Shown: positions 553-43,627 of the stretch, in pieces
Numbering within the stretch: the stretch's first letter is position 1
Layout: every line of letters starts with the position of its first letter
DNA from: Escherichia phage TheodorHerzl
Direction: 5' to 3' (one strand)
Length of the DNA stretch: 43,627 nt
Sequence record: MZ501107
Program-made: the position numbers and the translations under genes
The notes under the pieces: model-generated
Told to the model about the DNA's origin: nothing
Database searches by the model: none
Seen by the model: the letters and a program-made list of their open reading frames with translations, nothing else

Positions 553-1937
553 TGCGTAACTATGCGGCAGAACACCGCGCACTGGAGCGCACGATCGCAA
601 AGCGCAACCGACCGCCACGCCCTACACGCGTTGCGCAGGCGGTGCGTCTTTACCAGCCTGATTGCCTACCGCACCAGGTAGAACTACTGCGCGACACGAA
701 GACTAAAATCCTCGGCCTGTGTTCCGGCTTCGGCGGCGGTAAGTCATGGGTCGCAGCACGTAAGGTAATCCAGCTTCTCACATTGAACCCCGGTCATGAT
801 GGCATTGTGACGGAGCCGACTATTCCGCTCCTGGTTAAAATCATGTACCCGGAACTCGAGAAGGCATTCGATGAGGCTGGCTTCCGGTGGAAGTTCAACA
901 AGCAGGACAAGATCTATAACGTGCGGGTGAAAGGGAAATGGACCCGCGTTATCTGTGAATCAATGGAGAACTATACCCGCCTGATCGGGGTCAACGCCGC
1001 GTGGATTGTTGCCGACGAGTTCGACACCACGAAACAAGACGTCGCGCTGGCGGCATATCACAAATTGCTAGGTCGTCTGCGTGCGGGCTTCGTCCGCCAG
1101 TTCGTCATAGTATCCACGCCTGAAGGCTACCGGGCGATGTACCAGATTTTCGAAGTGGAGAAGGATAGCCAAAAACGTTTGATCCGGGCGAAGACCACCG
1201 ACAACCACCACTTACCGGCAGACTTTATCGACACGCTGCGCAGTCAGTACCCGGCTAACCTGATTGATGCGTACTTGAACGGCCTGTTTGTCAACCTTAC
1301 GTCTGGCGCAGTATACAAGATGTTCAACCGTGAGGAGAACGCCAGCACCGAAGAAGTGCAGCCGGAAGACACGCTGATTATCGGTATGGACTTTAACGTC
1401 ACGAAAATGGCGGCGGTTGTGTACGTCAGACGGCAGCGCACCACGGAGAACAAGGAGTTCCGCGACGAGATCCACGCAGTGGATGAGTTTGTGGACCTGT
1501 TTGATACCCCGGCTATGATTGAGGCGATCGAGGAGCGCTACCCCGATCATTGTGCTGCCGGTCGTGTTGTCGTTTATCCGGATAGCAGCGGCAAGTCTCG
1601 CAAGACTGTCAACGCATCGTCGTCCGATATCGCGCAACTGGAAGACGCGGGCTTCGAGGTGGAATACGACAGCGTTAACCCACCTGTGAAAGACCGATTG
1701 ATCGCGATGAATACGATGATGTGCAACTCGAAGGGTGTGCGCCAGTATTTTGTCAACCTGGATAAATGCCCTACACTAGCGAAATGTCTGGAACAGCAGG
1801 TTTACGACCTGAAGAAAGGCGAGCCGGATAAAACCGCCGGTGTGGACCACATGAACGATGCCGCGGGCTATCCAATTGCGCACCTGTTCCCAGTGATTCG
1901 TCCGATCGCCGTTGTTCCAACTGTAGACTTCTACTAA
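552..1937 (+). CDS. terminase large subunit
   Basis: 461 aa with Walker A-like GLCSGFGGGKS and Walker B-like WIVADEFD, followed by a C-terminal nuclease-like half. Lies between small terminase and portal. Confidence 0.9.
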   Translation: MRNYAAEHRALERTIAKRNRPPRPTRVAQAVRLYQPDCLPHQVELLRDTKTKILGLCSGFGGGKSWVAARKVIQLLTLNPGHDGIVTEPTIPLLVKIMYPELEKAFDEAGFRWKFNKQDKIYNVRVKGKWTRVICESMENYTRLIGVNAAWIVADEFDTTKQDVALAAYHKLLGRLRAGFVRQFVIVSTPEGYRAMYQIFEVEKDSQKRLIRAKTTDNHHLPADFIDTLRSQYPANLIDAYLNGLFVNLTSGAVYKMFNREENASTEEVQPEDTLIIGMDFNVTKMAAVVYVRRQRTTENKEFRDEIHAVDEFVDLFDTPAMIEAIEERYPDHCAAGRVVVYPDSSGKSRKTVNASSSDIAQLEDAGFEVEYDSVNPPVKDRLIAMNTMMCNSKGVRQYFVNLDKCPTLAKCLEQQVYDLKKGEPDKTAGVDHMNDAAGYPIAHLFPVIRPIAVVPTVDFY

Positions 1938-1947
1938 GGAAACGACC

Positions 1948-3468
1948 ATGACCGTTAACGTTGACAACCAGCACCCGCTCTATGCGCGCATCGCGCCAGA
2001 GTGGAAAATGATCCGTGACTGTGTAGCAGGGGAGCGCGCCGTGAAGGCGTGCGGCCCCTTATACCTGCCACACCCAGCCAGTGGCGACAACACTGACCCG
2101 AAAGCACGGGCGCGGTATAAGGCGTACAAGCAACGCGCTGTATTCATGAACGCCACCGCCCGTACACTTAACGCGCTGTTAGGCGTTGCCTTTGCTAAAC
2201 CGGTAAGTCTGGACCTTTCCGGGGCAATGGCTGACCTGATTGACGACGTAGACGGCAGCGGTATGCCGCTGCCGCAACTCCTGCGCGGTGCTATGTCTGA
2301 AGTTCTGCAATCAGGCCGTGCGGGCTTTATGGTCGACTACGACCGCCAGGCGCATTTTGATGAACTTGGTAACGTAGTGCCGCAGACAGCCGCCGAGATG
2401 GCGTCACACCGCCCGCTTATCCGCCTGTACACGGCAGAACAGATCATCAACTGGCGGCAGACCCACGGCGTCGATACGCTAATTGTGCTGAAGGAGACGG
2501 ATGAAATCAGCACCGAAGACCCGGACGACTTCGCAAACCACGAAGTAACAATCTGGACCGAGCTTCGCATGATTAACGGTGCAGCACACGCCCGCCGCTG
2601 GTACTACAACGCCGACACGTCCGAGGTGCAAATGGACTTGCCGCGTGGATTCACCCGCACCGACCTTGTACCGCTGGTGGATGCTGCCGGTAATGCGCTG
2701 ACACAACTTCCGTTTTGCTGGTGTGGCGCGGTGGATAACAACGCGACGCCAGACGCCGCGCCGCTGGCGGATATTGCATCCATCAACATTAAGCACTACA
2801 ACGCCGAAGCGGACGTCGCCGAGATTGCGCACATCGTGGGCCAACCTACCCTGGTGGCAACTGGCTTGACTCAATCATGGGCGGACAAAAACCTGAAAGG
2901 CGGCATCGCGCTCGGAGCGACTAAGGGCGTTATCCTTGGCCAGAACATGGACGCCAAACTGATTCAGGCCGAGGAGCGCAACTTGTCTGTTACACTGTGT
3001 GAGCGACGCGAATTGCAAATGGCTAAACTGGGCGCGGCCCTGGTCGAGAAGGGGACCGCACCTAAGACGGCAACCGAGGCGGCATACGATGCGCAGACTG
3101 ATAACAGTATCCTGTCGCTTATTGCCGGTAACGTTGAGAAGGCTTTCAACCGTGCGCTGCAAATCGTCCAGCTATTCACGGGCGACACTGCCGACCAGCG
3201 CGTAACGCTGAACAAGTTCTACACCGAAATCACGGTTGATGCGCAGCTTATGACCGCGATGATGTCGGGGGTGCAGACCGGCACGGTCCGCCTGGCTGAC
3301 TTCATCAAGTGGATGATGGCGCAGGGTGTCATCGACGACTCGCAAACCGTCGAGCAGGTGGAAGACGAATTGCGAAATCAGAATCCATTGCCCCAAATGT
3401 CCCCCGATGCGGTAGAATCTACCGAAGAAGACCCGGACAAGGTAGCGGACGATGGCGAGAACAATTAA
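1948..3468 (+). CDS. portal protein
   Basis: 506 aa ORF immediately after terL, with RBS AAGGAAA upstream and an acidic C-terminus. Assignment by size and synteny. Confidence 0.85.
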   Translation: MTVNVDNQHPLYARIAPEWKMIRDCVAGERAVKACGPLYLPHPASGDNTDPKARARYKAYKQRAVFMNATARTLNALLGVAFAKPVSLDLSGAMADLIDDVDGSGMPLPQLLRGAMSEVLQSGRAGFMVDYDRQAHFDELGNVVPQTAAEMASHRPLIRLYTAEQIINWRQTHGVDTLIVLKETDEISTEDPDDFANHEVTIWTELRMINGAAHARRWYYNADTSEVQMDLPRGFTRTDLVPLVDAAGNALTQLPFCWCGAVDNNATPDAAPLADIASINIKHYNAEADVAEIAHIVGQPTLVATGLTQSWADKNLKGGIALGATKGVILGQNMDAKLIQAEERNLSVTLCERRELQMAKLGAALVEKGTAPKTATEAAYDAQTDNSILSLIAGNVEKAFNRALQIVQLFTGDTADQRVTLNKFYTEITVDAQLMTAMMSGVQTGTVRLADFIKWMMAQGVIDDSQTVEQVEDELRNQNPLPQMSPDAVESTEEDPDKVADDGENN

Positions 3469-9183: not shown

Positions 9184-9605
9184 TGAGCAATACTCTAATC
9201 CGCAAGGCGCTTAACCGCGTGGTAGAAGATTTATCGGTAAGCCTGAGCACCAGCCAGCGACCGATCCTTGTTAACTGGGAGAACGTGCAAGGGGACCACG
9301 CAAACGGCAGCGGTGTCTACCTGGAACCATATCTGCTTCCGGCCCCTACCCAGTTTGTGGGCTTCCAGCAGAAGGGCCGGATCTATGCAGGCGTGTATCA
9401 GATTGCCGTGGTATTTCCTGCGGGCACTGGCACACAGTATGCGAGCGAACTGGCGGACGCCATCGCGACGTCTGACAAGTGGCAGGCCGTAAGGCTTACC
9501 GGCGCTGCGTTCCAGCTTCAAGACGCGCCATACACCAGTTCGGTGATTGAGGATGTTGATCGCGCCCGCATCGTGGTTACAGTACCCTACACCTGTTGCG
9601 CCTGA
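9183..9605 (+). CDS. tail terminator-like protein (putative)
   Basis: 140 aa with ATG overlapping the upstream stop; lies immediately upstream of the major tail protein. Confidence 0.45.
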   Translation: MSNTLIRKALNRVVEDLSVSLSTSQRPILVNWENVQGDHANGSGVYLEPYLLPAPTQFVGFQQKGRIYAGVYQIAVVFPAGTGTQYASELADAIATSDKWQAVRLTGAAFQLQDAPYTSSVIEDVDRARIVVTVPYTCCA

Positions 9606-9665
9606 TTTGGCGCAATTCTGCGCGTGCTGTATCATTAAACCGTATATCTAAACAGGAGCTTTATT

Positions 9666-10391
9666 ATGGGTTATCAACTTCCCAACGGGTCCAGCGTCCA
9701 GATCGGGTCCGTATTAGGCAGCGGCATCGCGGTTACGGCAGCTACCAACGCCGCGGCGTCAATCTCCGATCTTACGCAAGGTTGCGTAATTACCTGCGCG
9801 GCTTTGCATGGTCTGGTTGTTGGCGACGTTGTTATGTTCACTAAAACCCCGTGGGTCCGAGCGCTTAACCGCGCATTCATCGTGGGTAAAGTGGACGCCA
9901 ACGACGTTACGCTGGCGCGCTTCGACACCGAAGACGTCACAAAATACCCGACCGGCGCTTTCAGCGTAGGCACTCCAGGCGAAGTGGTGAAGGTGTCGGG
10001 CTTTATCGACTTCCCTTTCATTACTAACGTTGCCGTGTCTGGTGGCGACCAGCAGACGACTACCTTCCAGCCGTTGCAGGTGAACACCGCAATCAGTCTG
10101 AACACCACGAAAAACCCGTTGGTACAGACTTACACTTTCACCCACGACGAAGAAGACCCGATCCGCCCAATCCTGGAAGACCTGGACGACACACAGAAAA
10201 CCACTGTGATTAAGTTCACGAACCCAGCGGCAGCAAGCGGCAAAGGTGAAATCCGTATTTACCCTGCTAAGGTATCTTTCCAGAAGATTCCGTCCGCTGA
10301 AGTAAACAACGTGGAAACGGTGCAGTCCACTCTGACCATGCAGTCTGATATGGTTATCTACCGTAAGGACCTGGTCGAGGCGTTGTCTTGA
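9666..10391 (+). CDS. major tail (tube) protein
   Basis: 241 aa with RBS AGGAG, followed by a terminator and then the G/GT chaperone genes. Canonical siphovirus order. Confidence 0.7.
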   Translation: MGYQLPNGSSVQIGSVLGSGIAVTAATNAAASISDLTQGCVITCAALHGLVVGDVVMFTKTPWVRALNRAFIVGKVDANDVTLARFDTEDVTKYPTGAFSVGTPGEVVKVSGFIDFPFITNVAVSGGDQQTTTFQPLQVNTAISLNTTKNPLVQTYTFTHDEEDPIRPILEDLDDTQKTTVIKFTNPAAASGKGEIRIYPAKVSFQKIPSAEVNNVETVQSTLTMQSDMVIYRKDLVEALS

Positions 10392-10421
10392 TTTGGTCGC
10401 TTAAATAGCGAGTGTTAATAT

Positions 10422-10448
10422 GGGGCCAGCAAGGCCCCTTTTTTTATT
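10422..10448 (+). terminator. intrinsic terminator after the major tail protein
   Basis: GGGGCC-AGCAA-GGCCCC followed by a run of eight T. Confidence 0.75.
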
Positions 10449-10461
10449 GGAGAATATTACA

Positions 10462-10824
10462 ATGGCTAAAGCACCACTCTTTACACTTGACCCTAAGCCG
10501 ACCTTTAAGCTGCCGATTGAGATCCCGCGCCCTGGTGAGAACGAACCAGGCAAGATGACGTTTACCGTCCGCCACCGCCCTATCGACGAATTTTCGCAGA
10601 CCATGCAGGACACCGAACGCAAGTTGTCGGAGTATGACGACAATGACCCGGACGGCTTTAACGTTATGGTCGAGGCCATCATGCACGTCGCAGAAGGCTG
10701 GAATCTGCCGGACGAATTTAACGCGGAGAACGTCCGCCGCCTGGTGGTCAACTATCCACGCGCGTTCGGTGTGTTCCACACTTCGTACTATCTCGAACTG
10801 ATGGGATTGCGTGAAAAAAACTAA
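10462..10824 (+). CDS. tail assembly chaperone (G-like)
   Basis: 120 aa from ATG 10462. Ends MGLREKN* with a slippery A-run at its 3-prime end; an open -1 frame continues downstream. Confidence 0.75.
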   Translation: MAKAPLFTLDPKPTFKLPIEIPRPGENEPGKMTFTVRHRPIDEFSQTMQDTERKLSEYDDNDPDGFNVMVEAIMHVAEGWNLPDEFNAENVRRLVVNYPRAFGVFHTSYYLELMGLREKN

Positions 10825-11138
10825 TTGAGGCGGCGCGACGCTTTTATGGCCCGCCGCCACCCTCCGAAGATTTAGCCGCAAGTTTATGGGGTGCGACCCC
10901 CGAAGATGTTTGTCCGCCTGTTGCGCTGTGGCCTGACAACGCGAAGATAGTCGCAGTCTTCACAGATTGCGCCACGCAATGGCGCACCGGATTTGGTGGC
11001 GCATACGGCATCGACTACGGCGTGATGGAGTGGTTATTTAAGATGCACGGTATCGAAAACGAGCAGCGCGCGTTTAAAGATATCAAGCTAATGGAACGAA
11101 TCGCGCTTGATGAGATGGCGCAGCAGAACCCCGCATAA
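10462..11138 (+). CDS. tail assembly chaperone GT fusion, produced by -1 frameshift near 10815-10821
   Basis: The -1 frame extension reads LIEAARRFYGPPPPSEDLAASLWGATPEDVCPPVALWPDNAKIVAVFTDCATQWRTGFGG...MAQQNPA and sits where the T-extension is conserved in siphoviruses. Confidence 0.6.
10815..10821 (+). other. programmed -1 ribosomal frameshift site (A AAA AAC)
   Basis: Heptamer A_AAA_AAC spans the last codons of the G-like ORF. The -1 frame (codon starts divisible by 3) stays open to TAA at 11136-11138. Confidence 0.65.
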
Positions 11139-11258
11139 TGAAGCGGGACAGGCGGGACGTCCCGTTTTGTCCCACCCCTGTGAAACTGCATACCTACTCA
11201 CTTCCATTGCATAATATAAAAGCGGGACAGGCGGGACGTCCCGTTTTGTCCCACCCCA
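11136..11258. repeat. direct repeat: two copies of a ~39-bp unit AAGCGGGACAGGCGGGACGTCCCGTTTTGTCCCACCCC spaced ~80 bp
   Basis: The unit appears identically at about 11141-11178 and 11220-11257. Each contains the palindrome GGGACGTCCC flanked by GGGACA and TGTCCC. Confidence 0.85.
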
Positions 11259-11299
11259 CAAAAGTGCATACGTATTCGGTTTTCGTGCATAAAACAAAC

Positions 11300-11400
11300 T
11301 GGACAAAAAGCGGGACAAACACTAGGCGGGACAAAGCGGGACAGCACCCCGTCCCAGCCAGTGCTGCCGCGGTTTTCAGCCGATCGGGACAGCGGGACAG
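11300..11400. repeat. GGGACA iteron block A
   Basis: Repeated GCGGGACA(A/G) units; about 70 bp is nearly identical to 38636-38705. Confidence 0.8.
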
Positions 11401-11405
11401 CACCC

Positions 11406-11453
11406 CAGTCTTTCAGACTAGACGGGGGTCAACGGCCCCCCTCGTCTGAGACT
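11406..11453 (+). repeat. conserved long imperfect hairpin A (copy of 38757-38803)
   Basis: CAGTCTTTCAGACTAGACGGGGGTCAACGG(C5-6)TCGTCTGAGACT followed by GAATAA. Inverted arms TCAGAC/GTCTGA and GGGGG/CCCCC. This copy appears to carry one extra C relative to copy B, judged from the reading frame of the overlapping ORF in the track. Confidence 0.75.
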
Positions 11454-11522
11454 GAATAAGGTTTGTTTTGAAATCGCTGATACAATATCCATCGGCAACT
11501 GCATAAAAAAGGGGACTGCATA

Positions 11523-23383: not shown

Positions 23384-23409
23384 AAGGGGCCGTATGGCCC
23401 CTTTTTTAG
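23384..23409. terminator. terminator between the convergent tail fibre gene and the minus-strand early operon
   Basis: AAGGGGCC-GTAT-GGCCCC followed by six T. Confidence 0.75.
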
Positions 23410-23981
23410 TTTAAGTTTTCCCAGTCCATTTTGCGCCGCACTAGCGGGCTTTCGTAATACTCCTTCCCATCCACTTCCACTAAGGGCCAGTCATTAACAA
23501 TGACGTAAGGCTCTGCGATATCCTCGATCACGCCGTGCGCGCTATGTTGTCCGAAATCTACGCCCACCAGGATAACACCGGCAACGCGACGCGTGAGATA
23601 CTCGCGAGCGCAACGGGCCTCGACCAGTCCTCGACGTATGCCGCTGGTGGCCTTAACCTCGTAGGTCCAGACGGCATCGATCACATGTTCGCGGAAGTCG
23701 GGACCGGATTTTACCTTGCGCTTGCCGACCATGATAATATCGCCGCGGTCGATAGTGTTAGCGCTAAACAGGCCGGTACGCATTAGTAAGCCTTGCGGGA
23801 TACAGCTACGCCCACCCGTCTGCCCTTCGAGGTACATGCCTGCAAACATTTCGCCCAGCACACCGACGAGTCTGCTTTGCTTGCACGCGTCGGACTTATA
23901 CCGCCACTGGTCAAACTCGATGCTTGCGATCATTGCCGCCAGGTGGAATTGTTTACCTGATATTTCATATTCGCCGTACAT
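23406..23981 (-). CDS. hypothetical protein, possible PD-(D/E)XK-fold nuclease
   Basis: 191 aa with RBS GGGGGA. The stretch GPDF...DAVWTYEVKAT has PD...ExK-like spacing. Weak assignment. Confidence 0.45.
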   Translation of the reverse strand: MYGEYEISGKQFHLAAMIASIEFDQWRYKSDACKQSRLVGVLGEMFAGMYLEGQTGGRSCIPQGLLMRTGLFSANTIDRGDIIMVGKRKVKSGPDFREHVIDAVWTYEVKATSGIRRGLVEARCAREYLTRRVAGVILVGVDFGQHSAHGVIEDIAEPYVIVNDWPLVEVDGKEYYESPLVRRKMDWENLN

Positions 23982-24023
23982 TGTGAATCCCCCATTGCCG
24001 CGGGCCGAAGCCCGCGATTAGAA

Positions 24024-24545
24024 TTATTTCAGTGCGCCAGTCACCAGTGTTTTTTCCATGTTGCGGAAGTCTTCCGGCGTCATGAGGATTTTGGACCCAT
24101 CCTCGCCAGTGAGCACGACAATAGGCTGGACGTCCTGGGCTACGACGCCGAAATCGGCGGCTTTGACAGTCTTGCCCGCAGATGCCGAAGGACGCCACGT
24201 TCCGCCGGAGGCGATGGGCCAACCTTTGAGGCTGTCGAATTGTGCTGCCGTTGTATCGATCTGAATCTCGTCATGCACGGTCATGTAAGACTCACCCAGC
24301 AGGGCGGCATACGCCACCAGATCCACGATGTTATCTTCCTGGTGCTTTCGGTGCTGACGTACCAGCTTCAGGCAGATCAGGAAGGTCCAGGCTTCTTGCT
24401 CGGACAGGTCGCGACCGGTAAGCGCGTTAAACACGGCGGCGATTTGTTTAGCGCTGCGTTCTTCTTTCGCGTTGTCATAGCCGTTTTCTTTCCCTCGCTG
24501 CTCCATAGTGGTGGCGGCGTTTTTGCAGTATTCGTATGCTTTCAC
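24024..24545 (-). CDS. hypothetical protein
   Basis: 173 aa with GTG start, preceded by a TTGCAA-N18-TATAGT promoter. Confidence 0.55.
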   Translation of the reverse strand: MKAYEYCKNAATTMEQRGKENGYDNAKEERSAKQIAAVFNALTGRDLSEQEAWTFLICLKLVRQHRKHQEDNIVDLVAYAALLGESYMTVHDEIQIDTTAAQFDSLKGWPIASGGTWRPSASAGKTVKAADFGVVAQDVQPIVVLTGEDGSKILMTPEDFRNMEKTLVTGALK

Positions 24546-24592
24546 AGTATTACCCTTTTTAGTGAGGGGGCTGTATTGCCCCCGACGAGTTA

Positions 24593-24622
24593 ACTATAAT
24601 GCAACCAACCTATTGGTTGCAA
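24593..24622 (-). promoter_or_regulatory. sigma70-like promoter containing a palindromic ATTGGTTGCA pair
   Basis: Minus strand reads TTGCAA, then the 18-nt spacer CCAATAGGTTGGTTGCAT, then TATAGT. The 8-4-8 palindrome GCAACCAA-nnnn-TTGGTTGC overlaps the 3-prime end of the HAD gene. Coordinates approximate. Confidence 0.55.
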
Positions 24623-25080
24623 GTGAATTTTGCAACGTTTATTGCGTAAATTTTCGGAACCAAATCACCACACGCCCGACGAATTGCCGCGATGTTCTTC
24701 TCGCAATCTTCAATGATGACCAGTTCCGACACGTCTGCGTAGCAGACCATTTTGAACACGGCGCACGCCTTAAACTCTGGCGGCGGTGTGTCGTCCAGCA
24801 TGTGGCGCATAAACAACCGGCCCACCGGGAAGACCTTCAATTGCTCGGCGGTGGTGTCCCAACATTCTCGCTGCCGGTTTGTCAGATACGCTATCTCGAA
24901 GCCTTGCTCTTTGTACATGCGCAGCAGCGGCAGCATATCCATGTTCAGATCTTCGCGGACGTGCGCTTTGTGCCACTTTGCCCAAAAGGTGGATTTCGTT
25001 TTTATCCCTGGCACCAGGTCGGCACGCGCATCGCTTGAACCGTTAATAACGCCATCCAGGTCACAAATCAGTAATTTCAT
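24610..25080 (-). CDS. HAD-superfamily phosphatase (possible 5-prime-deoxynucleotidase)
   Basis: 156 aa. The N-terminal MKLLICDLDGVI matches HAD motif I (DxDG). Confidence 0.65.
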   Translation of the reverse strand: MKLLICDLDGVINGSSDARADLVPGIKTKSTFWAKWHKAHVREDLNMDMLPLLRMYKEQGFEIAYLTNRQRECWDTTAEQLKVFPVGRLFMRHMLDDTPPPEFKACAVFKMVCYADVSELVIIEDCEKNIAAIRRACGDLVPKIYAINVAKFTCNQ

Positions 25081-29100: not shown

Positions 29101-29128
29101 AAATGGCGGGACAAGCCCGCCGTATTAA

Positions 29129-35937: not shown

Positions 35938-36267
35938 ATGAATGTAAACGACGCAATCGAAATGTTAACGAAGACTGTTAGCAGTGAAACAAGCCGGTCA
36001 TGGGCTTATACCGATGCCGTTGGGGCGGTATTATTTGAGGTCGAGCGCCTGCGCAGTGTCGAGAAAGAATTACGCGCCAGGCTGGGATTGCTCAACGGCA
36101 CGGCAGCGAGCAAGCTACAAAAACACAATGAAGAAATGGAAGAATACAAAAAGCAGGTTATCCGTTTGCGCGCCGAGGGTAAATCGTGGGCGATGATTGC
36201 CGAGTTGACCGGGATTAATCAGAGCACAGTGCGCTCCTGGGTACGCAATAATAAAACTTCTAAGTAA
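35938..36267 (+). CDS. HTH DNA-binding protein (putative transcriptional regulator)
   Basis: 109 aa with RBS GAGGG. C-terminal helix-turn-helix KSWAMIAELTGINQSTVRSWVRNN. First gene of the rightward operon; a near-palindrome TTGGTCATTAACCAA overlaps its RBS region. Confidence 0.65.
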   Translation: MNVNDAIEMLTKTVSSETSRSWAYTDAVGAVLFEVERLRSVEKELRARLGLLNGTAASKLQKHNEEMEEYKKQVIRLRAEGKSWAMIAELTGINQSTVRSWVRNNKTSK

Positions 36268-36277
36268 GGCCACGGCA

Positions 36278-38542
36278 ATGAGCTTAATTAAATTCGCTGT
36301 AACAAGACCCGCTAAAAAAGGCGAAAAAGCCAGGGCGGAAAACTTCCAGATGACGACCGATGAGTTTTTCGAATTTATCAAAGATGCGAAAGAAATCTCC
36401 TCGGTGCATATCAACAAGACGGAAGATAAAGCCGAGTATGCGCGCCGCAAGCGTAAGGCCGATGGCATCGTGGCGTATACCAGTGACGGATTGCGTCGTA
36501 AGACCAGTGCGGTGGACCGCTCGATCCTGTTCTTTGATATTGACCGCACCGACACCCGCACCCTGCGCCGCTGCCGTAAGGCGTTCATCGACGCGGGTCT
36601 GGAACACGTATTTCACACCACCACCGGCGACCGCCACCCGCTGAAGGGCGGCACGCGTTGCGCCCGTTTCCTGGTGTTCACTGACAAGCCTGTACCGGCT
36701 GAAGACCTGGGCCGCGTCCAGTATGCACTATTACACCAACTGGGTCTGTCAGATGTGGACTTCGACGATTGCACGAAAGACACAAACCGCCTGATGTACC
36801 TGCCACACCAGCAGTCCGTTATTAAGTGCCACTATGGCAAGCGCGCCAATGTGCGTCGTCTACTCCGTCGGGCGGACAAGCTGGGGGTGGAAAAAGAGGA
36901 AGTACGCCGCGAGCTTACCCAGGGCGACGACGCAGTGGCAGACGGCATTCTGGACTGGTGCTTCCAGGCCGGATTCGAGGAGTTATCTTCTGGTCGCGGT
37001 TATGAAGTGCCGTGCCCGAACGAACATCTGCACAGCGGCGAAGGGTCGACGGCTATCATGGTCAAGGATGGCGAGATCCGTTTCAAGTGTATGCACACCG
37101 GCAACGAGTGTTGCTCGGAACTGAACAGACACCAGCACCTGGCGCTACGTCTTATCGGGATCCCGGACCACCTGAACGTCGAACCGCACAACATGTCACG
37201 TAAGCAAATCGCCGCCATCCTCCCAGGACTGGACGACGAGGAAGTGGAATCGTGCTATGAACATATCGTTGATGCGGTCGGTGACGGCGACGAGTACGGC
37301 GGATGTACGGACGCAGACCTTGACAACGAGCCGGTTGCGCTGTTCAGTAAGCACGACCCGATCATCGAGGGGTTGATTAACTTTAAATCGACCTGGTACA
37401 TGGCGGGTGAGTCGAACATCGGTAAGTCTTTCTACGTGCTGGGCCAGATGGGCGCGGTTGCCGCGGGTATTCCGTTCGGCGGCGCTAAGGTCGTCCAGTC
37501 CCATTGTTTCTATTTCGATGCGGAAGGCGGCGAAGCCTCCAACCAGCGTAAGGAAGCATTGCAGATTAAATATGAGCACGACCTGGACAAGCTGCACATT
37601 ATCGATCTGCAATCACGCGGCTGGGATATCACCAGCAAATCCGGCTTGCGTGAAGTTATCAGCTTCATCAACCGCACCGCTAACGGCGAACCGGTTGGCC
37701 TGGTGGCCTTCGACTCACTCAACCAGACTGTTGCGCTGCGGTCCGCGGATTCTAAGCCGTTCGACGAGAACAACGCCAGCGATATGGGTGAAGTGGTCAA
37801 GGCGCTGAAGGCCATTGCGGAAAATACAGGCGGAAGTGCGGGCGTCATCCACCACCCGGCGAAGGGTGCAAACGGCAGCAGAACGCCACGCGGGTCCGGC
37901 GCGCTTCATGGTGCTGTCGATTCTGCGTTCTTCCTGGAGCAACCGGACGACAATCAGCCGGGCCAATTGAACCTGTATCACGAAAAGGCACGTAACGGCA
38001 TCAAGCAAGCGCCGCGCGGCTTCGTCCTGCTCAAGTGCAAGGTTAAGGTGGATCTCCGCAAGTCCGAAGCGTTCGAAGCCCACCAGTCCACCAGCACCGG
38101 GCCGGACTTCGGTGATGTGGTTGCCGGTTGGGACGTCAAGCCGATCGCATCCACGCCACGCGACGAGACTCTTTATCTCGTACCGGTCGCCCTGGCACCG
38201 TTCGCCATCGAACAGGCGAAGGCCGCGGGTAAGGCAGCAGTTAAGGAAGAGAACGCCGCAGGGCCGCGCAACGAAAAAGAGAAAGTGCTTTATGCGGCAC
38301 TGGAAAAACTGATGGAAGATAACCCGGACCATACCGGATTCAGTAAATCGGCAATCGTCCGCCAGGCGGGATTGGCAAAAGGTGGCACATCGACGAAGGC
38401 AATCGACGATATGGTCGAGCGCGGCGTACTCGGTTTTTATACCGATCCGCACACCGGGGCCATCTATGGGTCGTCGAATATCGTCATCAAAACGAATATA
38501 CCCATCACGCTTTCTGCGACCGATGACGACCTGAAAGATTAA
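36278..38542 (+). CDS. primase-helicase (N-terminal primase-like domain with zinc-binding motif, C-terminal RecA-like AAA_25 ATPase)
   Basis: 754 aa. Cys/His cluster CPNEHLHSGEGS...KCMHTGNEC, Walker A AGESNIGKS, and Walker B LVAFDSL. Confidence 0.8.
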   Translation: MSLIKFAVTRPAKKGEKARAENFQMTTDEFFEFIKDAKEISSVHINKTEDKAEYARRKRKADGIVAYTSDGLRRKTSAVDRSILFFDIDRTDTRTLRRCRKAFIDAGLEHVFHTTTGDRHPLKGGTRCARFLVFTDKPVPAEDLGRVQYALLHQLGLSDVDFDDCTKDTNRLMYLPHQQSVIKCHYGKRANVRRLLRRADKLGVEKEEVRRELTQGDDAVADGILDWCFQAGFEELSSGRGYEVPCPNEHLHSGEGSTAIMVKDGEIRFKCMHTGNECCSELNRHQHLALRLIGIPDHLNVEPHNMSRKQIAAILPGLDDEEVESCYEHIVDAVGDGDEYGGCTDADLDNEPVALFSKHDPIIEGLINFKSTWYMAGESNIGKSFYVLGQMGAVAAGIPFGGAKVVQSHCFYFDAEGGEASNQRKEALQIKYEHDLDKLHIIDLQSRGWDITSKSGLREVISFINRTANGEPVGLVAFDSLNQTVALRSADSKPFDENNASDMGEVVKALKAIAENTGGSAGVIHHPAKGANGSRTPRGSGALHGAVDSAFFLEQPDDNQPGQLNLYHEKARNGIKQAPRGFVLLKCKVKVDLRKSEAFEAHQSTSTGPDFGDVVAGWDVKPIASTPRDETLYLVPVALAPFAIEQAKAAGKAAVKEENAAGPRNEKEKVLYAALEKLMEDNPDHTGFSKSAIVRQAGLAKGGTSTKAIDDMVERGVLGFYTDPHTGAIYGSSNIVIKTNIPITLSATDDDLKD

Positions 38543-38635: not shown

Positions 38636-38756
38636 CTGCATAAACCAAACGGGACAAAAAGCGGGACAAACACTAGGCGGGACAAAGCGGGACAGCACCC
38701 CCGTCCCGCCCCGGATGACGCGGCCTGGAGAGGAGCGGGACAGCGGGACAGCACCC
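38636..38756. repeat. GGGACA iteron block B (homologous to 11287-11400)
   Basis: GGGACA at 38651, 38663, 38679, 38689, 38738 and 38745. The block TGCATAAACCAAACGGGACAAAAAGCGGGACAAACACTAGGCGGGACAAAGCGGGACAGCACCCCCGTCCC is nearly identical to region A. Confidence 0.8.
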
Positions 38757-38803
38757 CAGTCTTTCAGACTAGACGGGGGTCAACGGCCCCCTCGTCTGAG
38801 ACT
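38757..38803 (+). repeat. conserved long imperfect hairpin B (copy of 11406-11453)
   Basis: CAGTCTTTCAGACTAGACGGGGGTCAACGGCCCCCTCGTCTGAGACT followed by GAATAA. Confidence 0.8.
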
Positions 38804-38958
38804 GAATAAAATCCGAGGATTGCAAATTACACGGCAGCATGTTGCGAAGTGCGGTCGCGGATGAACTAGGCAACCAATGCGAGTTGTATTATGCTGAGTG
38901 AAAAATGTGGTTTGCAGTCACAGCAGATAGCGATCGACTTTTTCATGCGCGTGATTAA

Positions 38959-41015: not shown

Positions 41016-41033
41016 TTATGCAAGCGTGATATA

Positions 41034-42078: not shown

Positions 42079-42268
42079 TACGAGGTAACACAGTATGTTA
42101 AAAAGCATTCTTGATCATAACGCCGACGCGCTCGCCGCGCTGGCTAAAACCTAAGATCCGGGCGCGCGAGCTATCATCGCGGATACTATCAACCACGCTG
42201 GGGTCTTCGATGCGAAGCTGCCAAGCCCACCCCCGCAGGAAGAGTCTGACCCCGTAGCGTAAACTATC

Positions 42269-42297
42269 AAGCCCGGTTAATTCCGGGCTTTTTATTG
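42269..42297 (+). terminator. intrinsic terminator after the lysis genes
   Basis: AGCCCGG-TTAATT-CCGGGCT followed by TTTTATT. Confidence 0.7.
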
Positions 42298-42354
42298 CCC
42301 GCCTCGATAAGTCCCGTGATATATTGTCCCCGGTCCCATAATCAGGAAGTAATT

Positions 42355-43497
42355 ATGCACCCGCAAACTAAAATCACAGACGAGCAATTGATTGCTGAAT
42401 TACAATCCGGCGCTACATCGAAAGAGATTTCTAAGAAGTACGGCTTGTCCCTCCGAAACGTCTACATGCGGAAAGCACGCTTGTCGAAAAAAGGAATTGG
42501 GCATGGCAATGATGCTGTAATCCGCAAGCGCGTTGCCGATGGCTTCGGTGTTAAGCGCGTATCGGCCCTGGTGCGCGGCAATGGCGAAGAGGTCATGTCG
42601 TGGGTTATCACTGAGCAGGACAAGGAGCGACAACTCGAAGCTATGCGCGCTGTTATCGAGGGTATGAACAGCGAAATCACACCGGCAGCGCCAGTAAAAG
42701 CCCCGCCAGTACCGATCCAGGCGCTCGACTTGCTCAACCTGTACACCGTGTCAGACTTCCACCTGGGCATGTTGGCATGGGGCGAGGAGACTGGCGAAGA
42801 CTGGGATATGGCGATCGCCGAAGACCTGTTCTACCGCTGGTTTGTCGAAGCCTTCGCCCGCGCACCGGACGCAGGCACTGCCGTAATTAATATCCTCGGG
42901 GATATGGCCCACTTTGATAGCCTCGACGCTGTCACTCCGGCAAGTGGTCACGTACTGGACGCCGACACCCGCTACCAGAAACTGGTCCGATACATGATTC
43001 GCATGGTGCGCAACGTCGTCGAACTGGCGCTGCAAAAACACCACAAAGTAAAACTGCTAATCGTCCAGGGAAATCATGACGAGTCGGGTATGATTTGGCT
43101 GGCTGAGATGTTCAATACTCTGTACGAGAACGAGCCGCGCGTCGATGTGGATACGTCCCCGGACGTCTACAAAATGGTGCAGCACGGCAAGACCACGCTA
43201 TTTTTCCACCACGGGCACAAAGCGCGATTCGATGCTATCGAGCAGGTTATGATTTCTAAATTCAGACAGGCTTTCGGATCCAGTGAGTATAGCTACGCGC
43301 ACGTAGGCCACTTGCACCACCAGAAGATCGTCGAGTCTCGCAATATGATTGTTGAACAGCACCGGACGCTCGCAGCGAAAGACGCCTACGCCAGTCGTGG
43401 CGGTTGGATGTCCGGTCGCAGCGCAAACGTCATCACCTACAGCGCCAACTACGGCGAAGTAGCGCGCTTAACCATTAGCCCAGAAATGTTGAAGTAA
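42355..43497 (+). CDS. HTH domain fused to calcineurin-like metallophosphoesterase
   Basis: 380 aa from the ATG with RBS AGGAAG. N-terminal HTH TSKEISKKYGLSLRNVYMRKARL. Phosphoesterase motifs SDFHLG (D-x-H), LGDMAHFD (GD), QGNHDE (GNHD/E), HHGH and HVGHLHH. Located directly upstream of the small terminase if the genome is circularised. Confidence 0.7.
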   Translation: MHPQTKITDEQLIAELQSGATSKEISKKYGLSLRNVYMRKARLSKKGIGHGNDAVIRKRVADGFGVKRVSALVRGNGEEVMSWVITEQDKERQLEAMRAVIEGMNSEITPAAPVKAPPVPIQALDLLNLYTVSDFHLGMLAWGEETGEDWDMAIAEDLFYRWFVEAFARAPDAGTAVINILGDMAHFDSLDAVTPASGHVLDADTRYQKLVRYMIRMVRNVVELALQKHHKVKLLIVQGNHDESGMIWLAEMFNTLYENEPRVDVDTSPDVYKMVQHGKTTLFFHHGHKARFDAIEQVMISKFRQAFGSSEYSYAHVGHLHHQKIVESRNMIVEQHRTLAAKDAYASRGGWMSGRSANVITYSANYGEVARLTISPEMLK

Positions 43498-43627
43498 CCC
43501 CGCGCTGTAACCCTCCCAGCCTGCCGATTTGGTGGGCTTTTTTGTGCCTGTTATAATCCCACTTAGATGGCAGGGCCGTCTCCTATGTTGCCGATGGTCG
43601 GCGCATATGAACAAAAGGGCTTATATC

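Follow-up and report, generated by a model that had tools for sequence, protein, structure and literature searches.

The nuclease metallophosphoesterase (MPE) of Pseudomonas putida, PdeM, a ligase-associated enzyme of the DNA damage response, is an Mn-dependent endonuclease of single-stranded DNA. Among the phages, T5 needs its pre-early protein A1, by genetic evidence, to degrade the host DNA and to complete second-step DNA transfer. The stand-alone cluster A MPE gp48 of mycobacteriophage A10ZJ24 is expressed early and has phosphodiesterase and DNase activities that need its conserved motifs; it degrades DNA in vitro and fragments host DNA in vivo (PMC12287305). The gene analysed here is located at 42355-43497 (plus strand) in Escherichia phage TheodorHerzl (sequence record MZ501107; the whole stretch of 43,627 nucleotides (nt) is referred to as the window). 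It encodes a protein of 380 amino acids (aa) with an N-terminal helix-turn-helix (HTH) fused to an MPE domain, and it belongs to the same family as ST16 of coliphage T1. With moderate confidence, we read this protein as an HTH-tethered, metal-dependent DNA phosphodiesterase or nuclease, which may act in phage replication, recombination or end processing, or against host DNA.

The open reading frame (ORF) at 42355-43497 is a real gene. A mechanically called version of 400 aa begins at TTG 42295; however, ATG 42355 is the true start, because the Shine-Dalgarno sequence AGGAAG (42344-42349, plus strand) precedes it with the ATG 5 nt downstream, and all homologues begin with MHPQTKITDEQL. The product matches the profile of PHROG 704 (E=4.4e-161; residues 5-380 on profile positions 2-390 of 390), whose name, 'DNA repair exonuclease', is a computational annotation. 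The NCBI names for the members are 'winged helix-turn-helix domain-containing protein' or 'metallophosphoesterase'. The family is large: 3726 homologues were found in a set of 5.8 billion proteins, and 4622 cluster representatives at 50% identity were found, including 1208 at E<=1e-30 that are typically 370-420 aa long. A homologue is present in 2076 of 50,697 phage records (about 4%). These include Dhillonvirus, Jerseyvirus, Kagunavirus, Drexlerviridae, Webervirus, Autographivirales (Erwinia phage phiEa100 and the Bonnellvirus LF82-23), Rhodobacter phage RcRios, N4-like roseophages, Vibrio phages and Campylobacter phages. The orthologue ST16 of T1 shares 45% sequence identity with the window protein (E=1e-109); the protein of phage NHEP3 shares 99.5%. 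The preliminary description of this locus had regarded an HTH fused to a phage phosphoesterase as unusual. This is not supported, since the fusion is an already catalogued and very common phage gene, and for gp37 of Klebsiella phage Sushi the GenBank annotation already lists a sigma factor 70 region 4 type 2 domain together with a metallo-dependent phosphatase-like domain.

The structure was modelled with AlphaFold2 from a 53-sequence alignment (predicted local distance difference test, pLDDT, 90.6), and the model has three parts. The first is an HTH of three helices at residues 9-17, 22-29 and 33-45 (residues 9-45; 42379-42489). The second is a connector at residues 64-107 (42544-42675), composed of a β-hairpin (64-73 and 79-88) and a helix (90-107). 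The third is an α/β domain at residues 121-380 (42715-43494). The HTH is weakly detected in the window protein alone (Pfam GerE, E=0.035); in the homologues, the matches reach 1.5e-9 for Sigma70_r4_2 and 2.4e-8 for GerE. Moreover, the N-terminal family profile matches GerE at 8.7e-5, and NarL, VraR, DesR and RhlR in the PDB at about 1e-3. The HTH is therefore recognisable by profile and by structure as of the LuxR/GerE/sigma-70 region 4 type; the preliminary description had proposed an N-terminal HTH from the letters alone. The HTH is constant throughout the family, and longer variants have one or two of them at the N terminus. All 14 of the Dhillonvirus copies that were compared share the recognition helix LRNVYMRKARL; across the wider family, this helix varies. 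The connector is family-specific, and no recognisable relative of residues 64-107 was found outside the HTH-MPE family; W83 is invariant, and S70 and G77 are nearly so. The N-terminal half is a mosaic, in which two alleles of residues 51-90 are combined with different HTH alleles.

The C-terminal domain carries all of the binuclear MPE motifs I-V: D134-x-H136, G182-D183-x-x-H186, G239-N240-H241-D242, H285/H286/H288 and G318-H319-x-H321. Residues D134, H136, G182, D183, N240, H241, H286, G318 and H321 do not vary among 53 diverse homologues (32-81% identity to the query), and H186 and H319 are conserved in at least 90% of them. The full motif set of a calcineurin-like phosphoesterase, as claimed earlier, is thus present, and it falls on the MPE active site. 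The Pfam scores of the window protein are below the gathering cut-offs (Metallophos_2, 22.4 versus 27; Metallophos, 20.6 versus 21.5). At E<=0.01, 15 and 9 of the 53 relatives match the two MPE models, and one of them, P0128, lies above the cut-off (25.1 > 21.5). The model has the β-α-β-α-β sandwich of the calcineurin-like MPE superfamily, and in the fold search the assignment of the predicted structure was unambiguous. The PDB matches of a single-sequence search were designed armadillo-repeat proteins, which were disregarded as spurious.

Within this superfamily, the predicted domain is nearest by fold to the nuclease branch (PolD DP1, Mre11 and SbcD) and not to the lambda-type protein phosphatases. 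The signatures GDxHG, GDxVDRG and GNHE and the PPP-like fold were not found in the window protein. Structure prediction, which had been suggested earlier as a means to classify the phosphoesterase, places it in the Mre11-like nuclease branch instead of the PPP phosphatases. Motif II has the form GDxxH, as in the P. putida nuclease MPE (GDFLH). This enzyme is also the best PDB match by sequence, although the match is non-significant, and NCBIfam gives a weak match to PdeM (TIGR04123).

Comparison with Jerseyvirus indicates which part of the protein is under the stronger conservation. Between the window and Salmonella phage STP03, the MPE domain is 87% identical; whereas the N-terminal 125 residues are 52% identical. 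Over the whole protein, the best matches against STP03 are 76% for the HTH-MPE protein, 66% for the DNA polymerase, 66% for a helicase, 41% for TerL and 30% for the portal protein. The HTH-MPE protein is thus the best-conserved protein common to Dhillonvirus and Jerseyvirus, despite its different genomic places. In Jerseyvirus, the gene is embedded in the tail module in reverse orientation. In STP03 (9251-11000), a moron-like island, made up of the HTH-MPE gene and two small ORFs on the strand opposite to their neighbours, separates the gene of the major tail protein from that of the tail chaperone; this island is located roughly where the Dhillonvirus tail module holds the first of its two iteron clusters.

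Most of the gene contexts in other phages are those of nucleotide and DNA metabolism. In phiEa100 and LF82-23, a 5'-3' exonuclease gene is followed by endonuclease VII, then by HTH-MPE and a HAD_PNKP phosphatase, and phiEa100 also has a P-loop protein and a DNA ligase further downstream. In Sushi (Webervirus) and T1, the gene follows a helicase and a Dam methylase and closes the replication/methylase block, with the lysis genes afterwards; in Sushi, a polynucleotide kinase (PNK) and a P-loop protein lie between. The gene is beside thyX, a dCMP deaminase and a dNTP pyrophosphohydrolase in an N4-like roseophage, and an OB-fold protein precedes it in a Vibrio phage. In the Dhillonvirus window, it is located between the lysis cassette and terS. 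It also adjoins the lysis cassette in several unrelated lineages, and the HTH-MPE gene followed by this cassette is reported to persist as a module in 508 of 522 Drexlerviridae (PMC13164509); this adjacency may be mere module order. On the minus strand of the window (23406-25080), a HAD-type PNK-like phosphatase (24610-25080) adjoins a DUF6378 protein (24024-24545); a PNK-type HAD phosphatase is directly downstream of HTH-MPE in other phages, whereas in the window 17 kb separate the two genes.

The window is a complete genome of Dhillonvirus, a group of E. coli siphophages. The region 42200-43627 matched 155 phage records at 80-96% identity in a megablast search, nearly all of them Escherichia or Shigella Dhillonvirus (the HK578/SSL-2009a group). 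The window opens with terS at 1-552 and is collinear with the circularly annotated genome of Bas84 (44,189 bp), and was therefore recognised as a genome opened at terS. It follows that the HTH-MPE gene, at the right end, is directly upstream of the packaging genes, in agreement with the preliminary description. All of the features of the locus are on the plus strand. An intrinsic terminator, AAGCCCGG-N6-CCGGGCTT with a T run, closes the upstream lysis unit at 42269-42290, and a second one follows the HTH-MPE gene at 43518-43538. An extended -10 promoter-like element of inferred function, TGATATATT, is located at 42317-42325, and the promoter core CCGTG(G/A)TATATTG is kept in 19 of 21 Dhillonvirus sequences examined, the other two having CCATG. 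A separate extended -10 element, TGTTATAAT (43549-43557), precedes terS and probably marks the start of the next unit. The two terminators and the two separate -10 elements suggest that the gene is monocistronic, transcribed alone from a putative sigma-70 extended -10 promoter.

Based on these data, a mechanism may be proposed. The HTH would serve as a tether to double-stranded DNA; the MPE domain would act as an exo- or endonuclease that cleaves DNA phosphodiester bonds, probably with Mn2+, with chemistry as in Mre11/SbcD, PolD DP1 and the P. putida MPE. The enzyme might process phage replication and recombination intermediates and DNA ends, or it might attack host DNA, by analogy with T5 A1 and A10ZJ24 gp48. 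The data establish the structure of the gene, the architecture of its product, the conservation of the catalytic residues, the fold class, the distribution of the family and its gene contexts; we infer the metal dependence, the DNA substrate and the nuclease activity of this protein, as well as the timing of its expression and its biological role.

Several points weigh against this proposal. The SbcD/Mre11-like chemistry suggested in the preliminary description is reasonable, but the link by sequence is not significant: the family profile matches Mre11/SbcD in the PDB at E=0.5-0.9 over motifs I-II only, and Pfam and NCBIfam gave no Mre11-specific match for the window protein. Nothing follows the MPE core, which extends to the last residue (380) of the model, and there is no counterpart of the C-terminal capping (DNA-specificity) domain of Mre11. 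No Rad50/SbcC-like partner was found in the collinear Bas84 genome or in the ORF list of the window, and no Rad50/SbcC-like ABC-ATPase adjoins the HTH-MPE gene in nine other phages. The position of the gene varies by lineage (the tail module in Jerseyvirus, the lysis cassette elsewhere), and therefore the context gives no single pathway. HTH-enzyme fusions can also be small-molecule-sensing regulators. Finally, no experimental study of any HTH-MPE family member was found in the literature.

A more specific form of the proposal can be put forward only tentatively, and we consider it rather unlikely. The HTH-MPE family, including T1 ST16 and the window gene, would constitute a new type of Mre11-like nuclease that is guided by its HTH, works without a partner and has a distant relationship to T5 A1. 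Lytic siphophages of the T1-like, Jersey-like and Dhillon-like groups would use it to degrade or inactivate host DNA, or to cleave a particular DNA structure. The target would be chosen by the variable half with the HTH and connector, and catalysis would be left to the near-invariant MPE half. As a speculation, the self-contained promoter-terminator unit upstream of terS might be among the first DNA entering the cell in a headful-packaged phage, echoing the pre-early A1. Gene 2.5 of T1, presumably needed for host DNA degradation, is a lead only, since neither a source for this role nor a correspondence of the gene with ST16 was found.

The relationship with T5 A1 (1706-3376 of T5, minus strand) was addressed by profile comparison. 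A1 has no Pfam match; however, its C-terminal half contains family-invariant MPE motifs (D304-x-H306, H339-D340, N396-H397-D398, H476 and G500-H501-x-H503), and its homologues (45-48% identical) carry N-terminal HTHs recognised by Pfam. This architecture parallels that of the window protein and fits the genetic role of A1 in host DNA degradation. With hhalign, A1 and the HTH-MPE family were aligned with a probability of 16-37% in the default local mode, over motif III only; with greedy extension, the probability was 55% over 227 collinear columns, which cover motifs III-V and the C-terminal (V/I)ITY. These values are below significance, and A1 is therefore regarded as analogous in architecture and function rather than as a relative by proven descent. 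None of the top 50 BFVD matches is named A1, many of these rows being nameless, and a preprint on the two-step injection of T5 does not mention an MPE.

The next explanation is that the protein is an end-healing phosphoesterase, which would clear the ends of broken RNA or DNA of blocking groups (2',3'-cyclic phosphate, 3'-phosphate or others). It might do so together with the split Pnkp-like HAD 3'-phosphatase of the phage, a P-loop kinase and a ligase, for example to repair damage caused by host anticodon nucleases or nicking defences. Some of the gene contexts speak for it: a HAD_PNKP phosphatase (Pfam, 2.3e-18) is within one or two genes downstream in Sushi, phiEa100 and LF82-23, a P-loop protein is next in Sushi and phiEa100, phiEa100 adds the DNA ligase, and the window itself encodes the HAD phosphatase at 24610-25080. 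However, the Dhillonvirus HAD phosphatase is 17 kb off and on the other strand, and no PNK is adjacent in Jerseyvirus. In the Drexlerviridae without SH3, PNK and dNMP kinase are the commonest downstream neighbours, but the authors read these kinases as nucleotide-supply genes (PMC13164509). MPE domains do carry out end healing in bacterial Pnkp and the lambda phosphatase (PMC2190708, PMC3675462); these known examples are of the lambda-phosphatase/PPP-like clade, whereas the window protein lacks the signatures of this clade and scores low against PPP folds. In addition, an HTH suits duplex DNA, not tRNA ends. End healing is thus an improbable function of this protein.

The protein might also be a transcription factor with an enzyme or sensor domain, in which the HTH binds promoters (for example its own, or those of the neighbouring lysis and late units) and a nucleotide signal is hydrolysed or sensed through the MPE domain. 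The sigma region 4/LuxR class of the HTH speaks for this reading, and the copies in Sodalis phage SO-1 (gp58) and Salmonella phage fmb-p1 are annotated as 'transcriptional regulator'. The gene adjoins the lysis cassette repeatedly (in T1, in the Drexlerviridae module, in RcRios and in the phages L068, L084 and L087), as late regulators do in several phages. In addition, an inverted repeat, GGACCGTGG-N8-CCACGGTCC, of 9-10 bp straddles the -10 box of the HTH-MPE gene in most Dhillonviruses. It is located at 42673-42700 in Bas84 (L013) and at the same position in the relatives L002, L004, L007, L019-L024, L027, L028 and L030. This repeat looks like an operator, or like a 5' hairpin if it is transcribed (-20.9 kcal/mol as RNA). 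The window promoter has no such repeat, because the left arm is replaced by AAGTCCCGTGA, a variant carried also by NHEP3, YD-2008.s and two IMG/VR genomes. HTH residue 32 (S or A) seems to correlate with the arm of the palindrome (GGGACCG or GGACCG), but the two are physically linked, which confounds the correlation, and it was not used. Moreover, the promoter-proximal bases vary while LRNVYMRKARL is invariant in the 14 Dhillonvirus copies, and no comparable palindrome is evident upstream of the gene in Jerseyvirus. The catalytic domain, not the HTH, is strongly conserved (87% versus 52%), and therefore the protein is better regarded as an enzyme first and a regulator second. A role mainly in transcription is quite improbable.

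The preliminary description had also noticed three GTCCC copies near the promoter, and had taken them as a hint of a link to the iteron elements of the genome, with the protein as the possible iteron-binding factor for the GGGACA clusters at 11141-11399 and 38649-38750. The copies were confirmed at 42311, 42326 and 42333 (42311-42337, plus strand), around the -10 element. A GTCCC triple within 27 nt arose anywhere in the genome in 1% of 300 Markov simulations, and the local cluster is therefore not noise. In addition, copy 2 shares GGGACAA with some iterons, and every Dhillonvirus examined has the gene and, where checked, the iterons. GGGAC/GTCCC is rarer than expected in the window as a whole (60 observed, 77 expected), but is strongly clustered at 11145-11516 and 38651-38749. 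The iteron proper is the 8-mer GCGGGACA, with 12 exact plus-strand copies, all in the two clusters save one at 29106, and two on the minus strand. On the complementary strand, the promoter copies read ACGGGACT, CGGGGACA and ATGGGACC, and no site within one mismatch of GCGGGACA was found in 42295-42354. Nor are the copies conserved: at these positions the relatives have GTCCAC, GTCCGC, GTCTTC, GCCTCC or GATCGC. In Bas84, which has 13 GCGGGACA iterons, the promoter reads GTCCAC and contains neither GTCCC nor GGGAC; whereas the Jerseyvirus STP03 has the 76% identical protein and zero GCGGGACA copies. The misfit to GCGGGACA and these two genomes leave the iteron link and the binding factor unsupported, and the occurrence of the family in the 2076 phage records of many families also argues against them. 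More natural candidates for iteron binding are the helicase-primase (36278-38542), whose gene ends about 100 nt before the second cluster, and an HTH protein of 109 aa encoded immediately upstream of that gene (35938-36267; HTH_23, 2.3e-7). Iteron binding by the HTH-MPE protein is very doubtful.

The iteron clusters have features of their own. The direct GCGGGACA repeats of the first cluster lie between the tail chaperone and tape-measure genes, and those of the second follow the helicase-primase gene. A 155-nt element is duplicated 27 kb apart with 88% identity (11286-11440 and 38637-38791), and the first cluster contains an exact 38-nt repeat (11141-11178 and 11220-11257). A strong hairpin ends the 38-kb cluster (38757-38804; -29.6 kcal/mol, z -4.8), and the same sequence is found after the 11-kb cluster. 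Both clusters are kept in Bas84 and absent from Jerseyvirus, and they gave no Rfam match. We take them to resemble an origin and a second cis site, like ori/crr of P4.

Lastly, a Ser/Thr/Tyr protein phosphatase like lambda NinI is hardly credible: NinI is of the same superfamily and lies beside NinH, a Fis-like HTH protein encoded next to it, but this is a loose architectural parallel.

Some other features of the window were recorded. The extended -10 sequence TGNTATANT has five matches, four of which are in plus-strand intergenic gaps (38985, 41027, 42317 and 43549) that precede successive blocks, namely small genes, lysis, HTH-MPE and packaging. At 41027, 42317 and 43549, a predicted terminator is at most 35 nt away and (G)TCCC is next; these three cases may represent a promoter class and are simply noted here. 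The endolysin gene is followed by a small ORF (42095-42262), whose counterparts in relatives (Bas84_0065 and EpYD_44, for example) are 55 aa long; in the window, it is cut by a TAA at 42152-42154 where the relatives read GAA, which is a nonsense mutation or a sequencing error. The window also lacks two small flanking ORFs that are common in Dhillonviruses (42291-42316 and 43498-43627, compared with 42597-42704 and 43861-44073 in Bas84). The first, which lies after the terminator and before the HTH-MPE promoter, has a TTGACT promoter of its own and encodes a hydrophobic, membrane-like peptide of 35 aa; the second, of 70 aa, lies between the HTH-MPE gene and terS. A 26-nt likeness between the 3' end of the gene (43488-43513) and terS (49-74) was judged to be chance, since about 14 exact 13-mer repeats are expected by our own estimate. 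No Rfam match at the gathering threshold was found anywhere in the window, and PADLOC gave no defence-system match.

As a sequence feature, the locus is ordinary: it is a catalogued family member and almost identical to an annotated protein. The interest is in the size and conservation of the family, present in about 4% of deposited phage genomes including T1, and not in the locus itself. If the protein is a nuclease of host DNA or DNA ends, this would bear on host takeover, on the risk of generalized transduction in therapeutic phages of such genera, and on how an Mre11-type active site works without Rad50.

Compared with the known systems, the likeness of the HTH-MPE protein is graded. Lambda NinI and the phosphatase module of Clostridium thermocellum Pnkp are of the same binuclear MPE superfamily, and NinI is phage-encoded while Pnkp is linked to kinase and ligase genes; however, they form a PPP-like clade with low structural similarity to the window protein. 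A10ZJ24 gp48 is the only phage MPE of such kind found with experimental data. Its likeness to the window protein was considered at the superfamily level, and its residue numbers place the beginning of motif I at D10, too near the N terminus for an HTH to precede it. T5 A1 is also required for host shut-off. It differs in its length (556 aa), in an extra middle region of about 200 aa, in being encoded on the first-step-transfer DNA and in working with A2, and its part in host DNA degradation is known from genetics, not as a nuclease activity of the protein itself. Mre11, SbcD and archaeal PolD DP1 have a structurally similar MPE nuclease core at 12-17% identity; unlike PolD DP1, the window protein has no OB-fold and no DP2 partner, and has an N-terminal HTH instead. 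The P. putida MPE shows the GDFLH and GNHD motif forms of the window family, and it is encoded near a ligase, as are some HTH-MPE members. The closest systems are T1 ST16, Sushi gp37, Sodalis phage SO-1 gp58 and the other members of PHROG 704, which are of the same family and have the same three-part architecture over the full length; the window copy differs from these relatives only in its variable N-terminal allele and its promoter flank.

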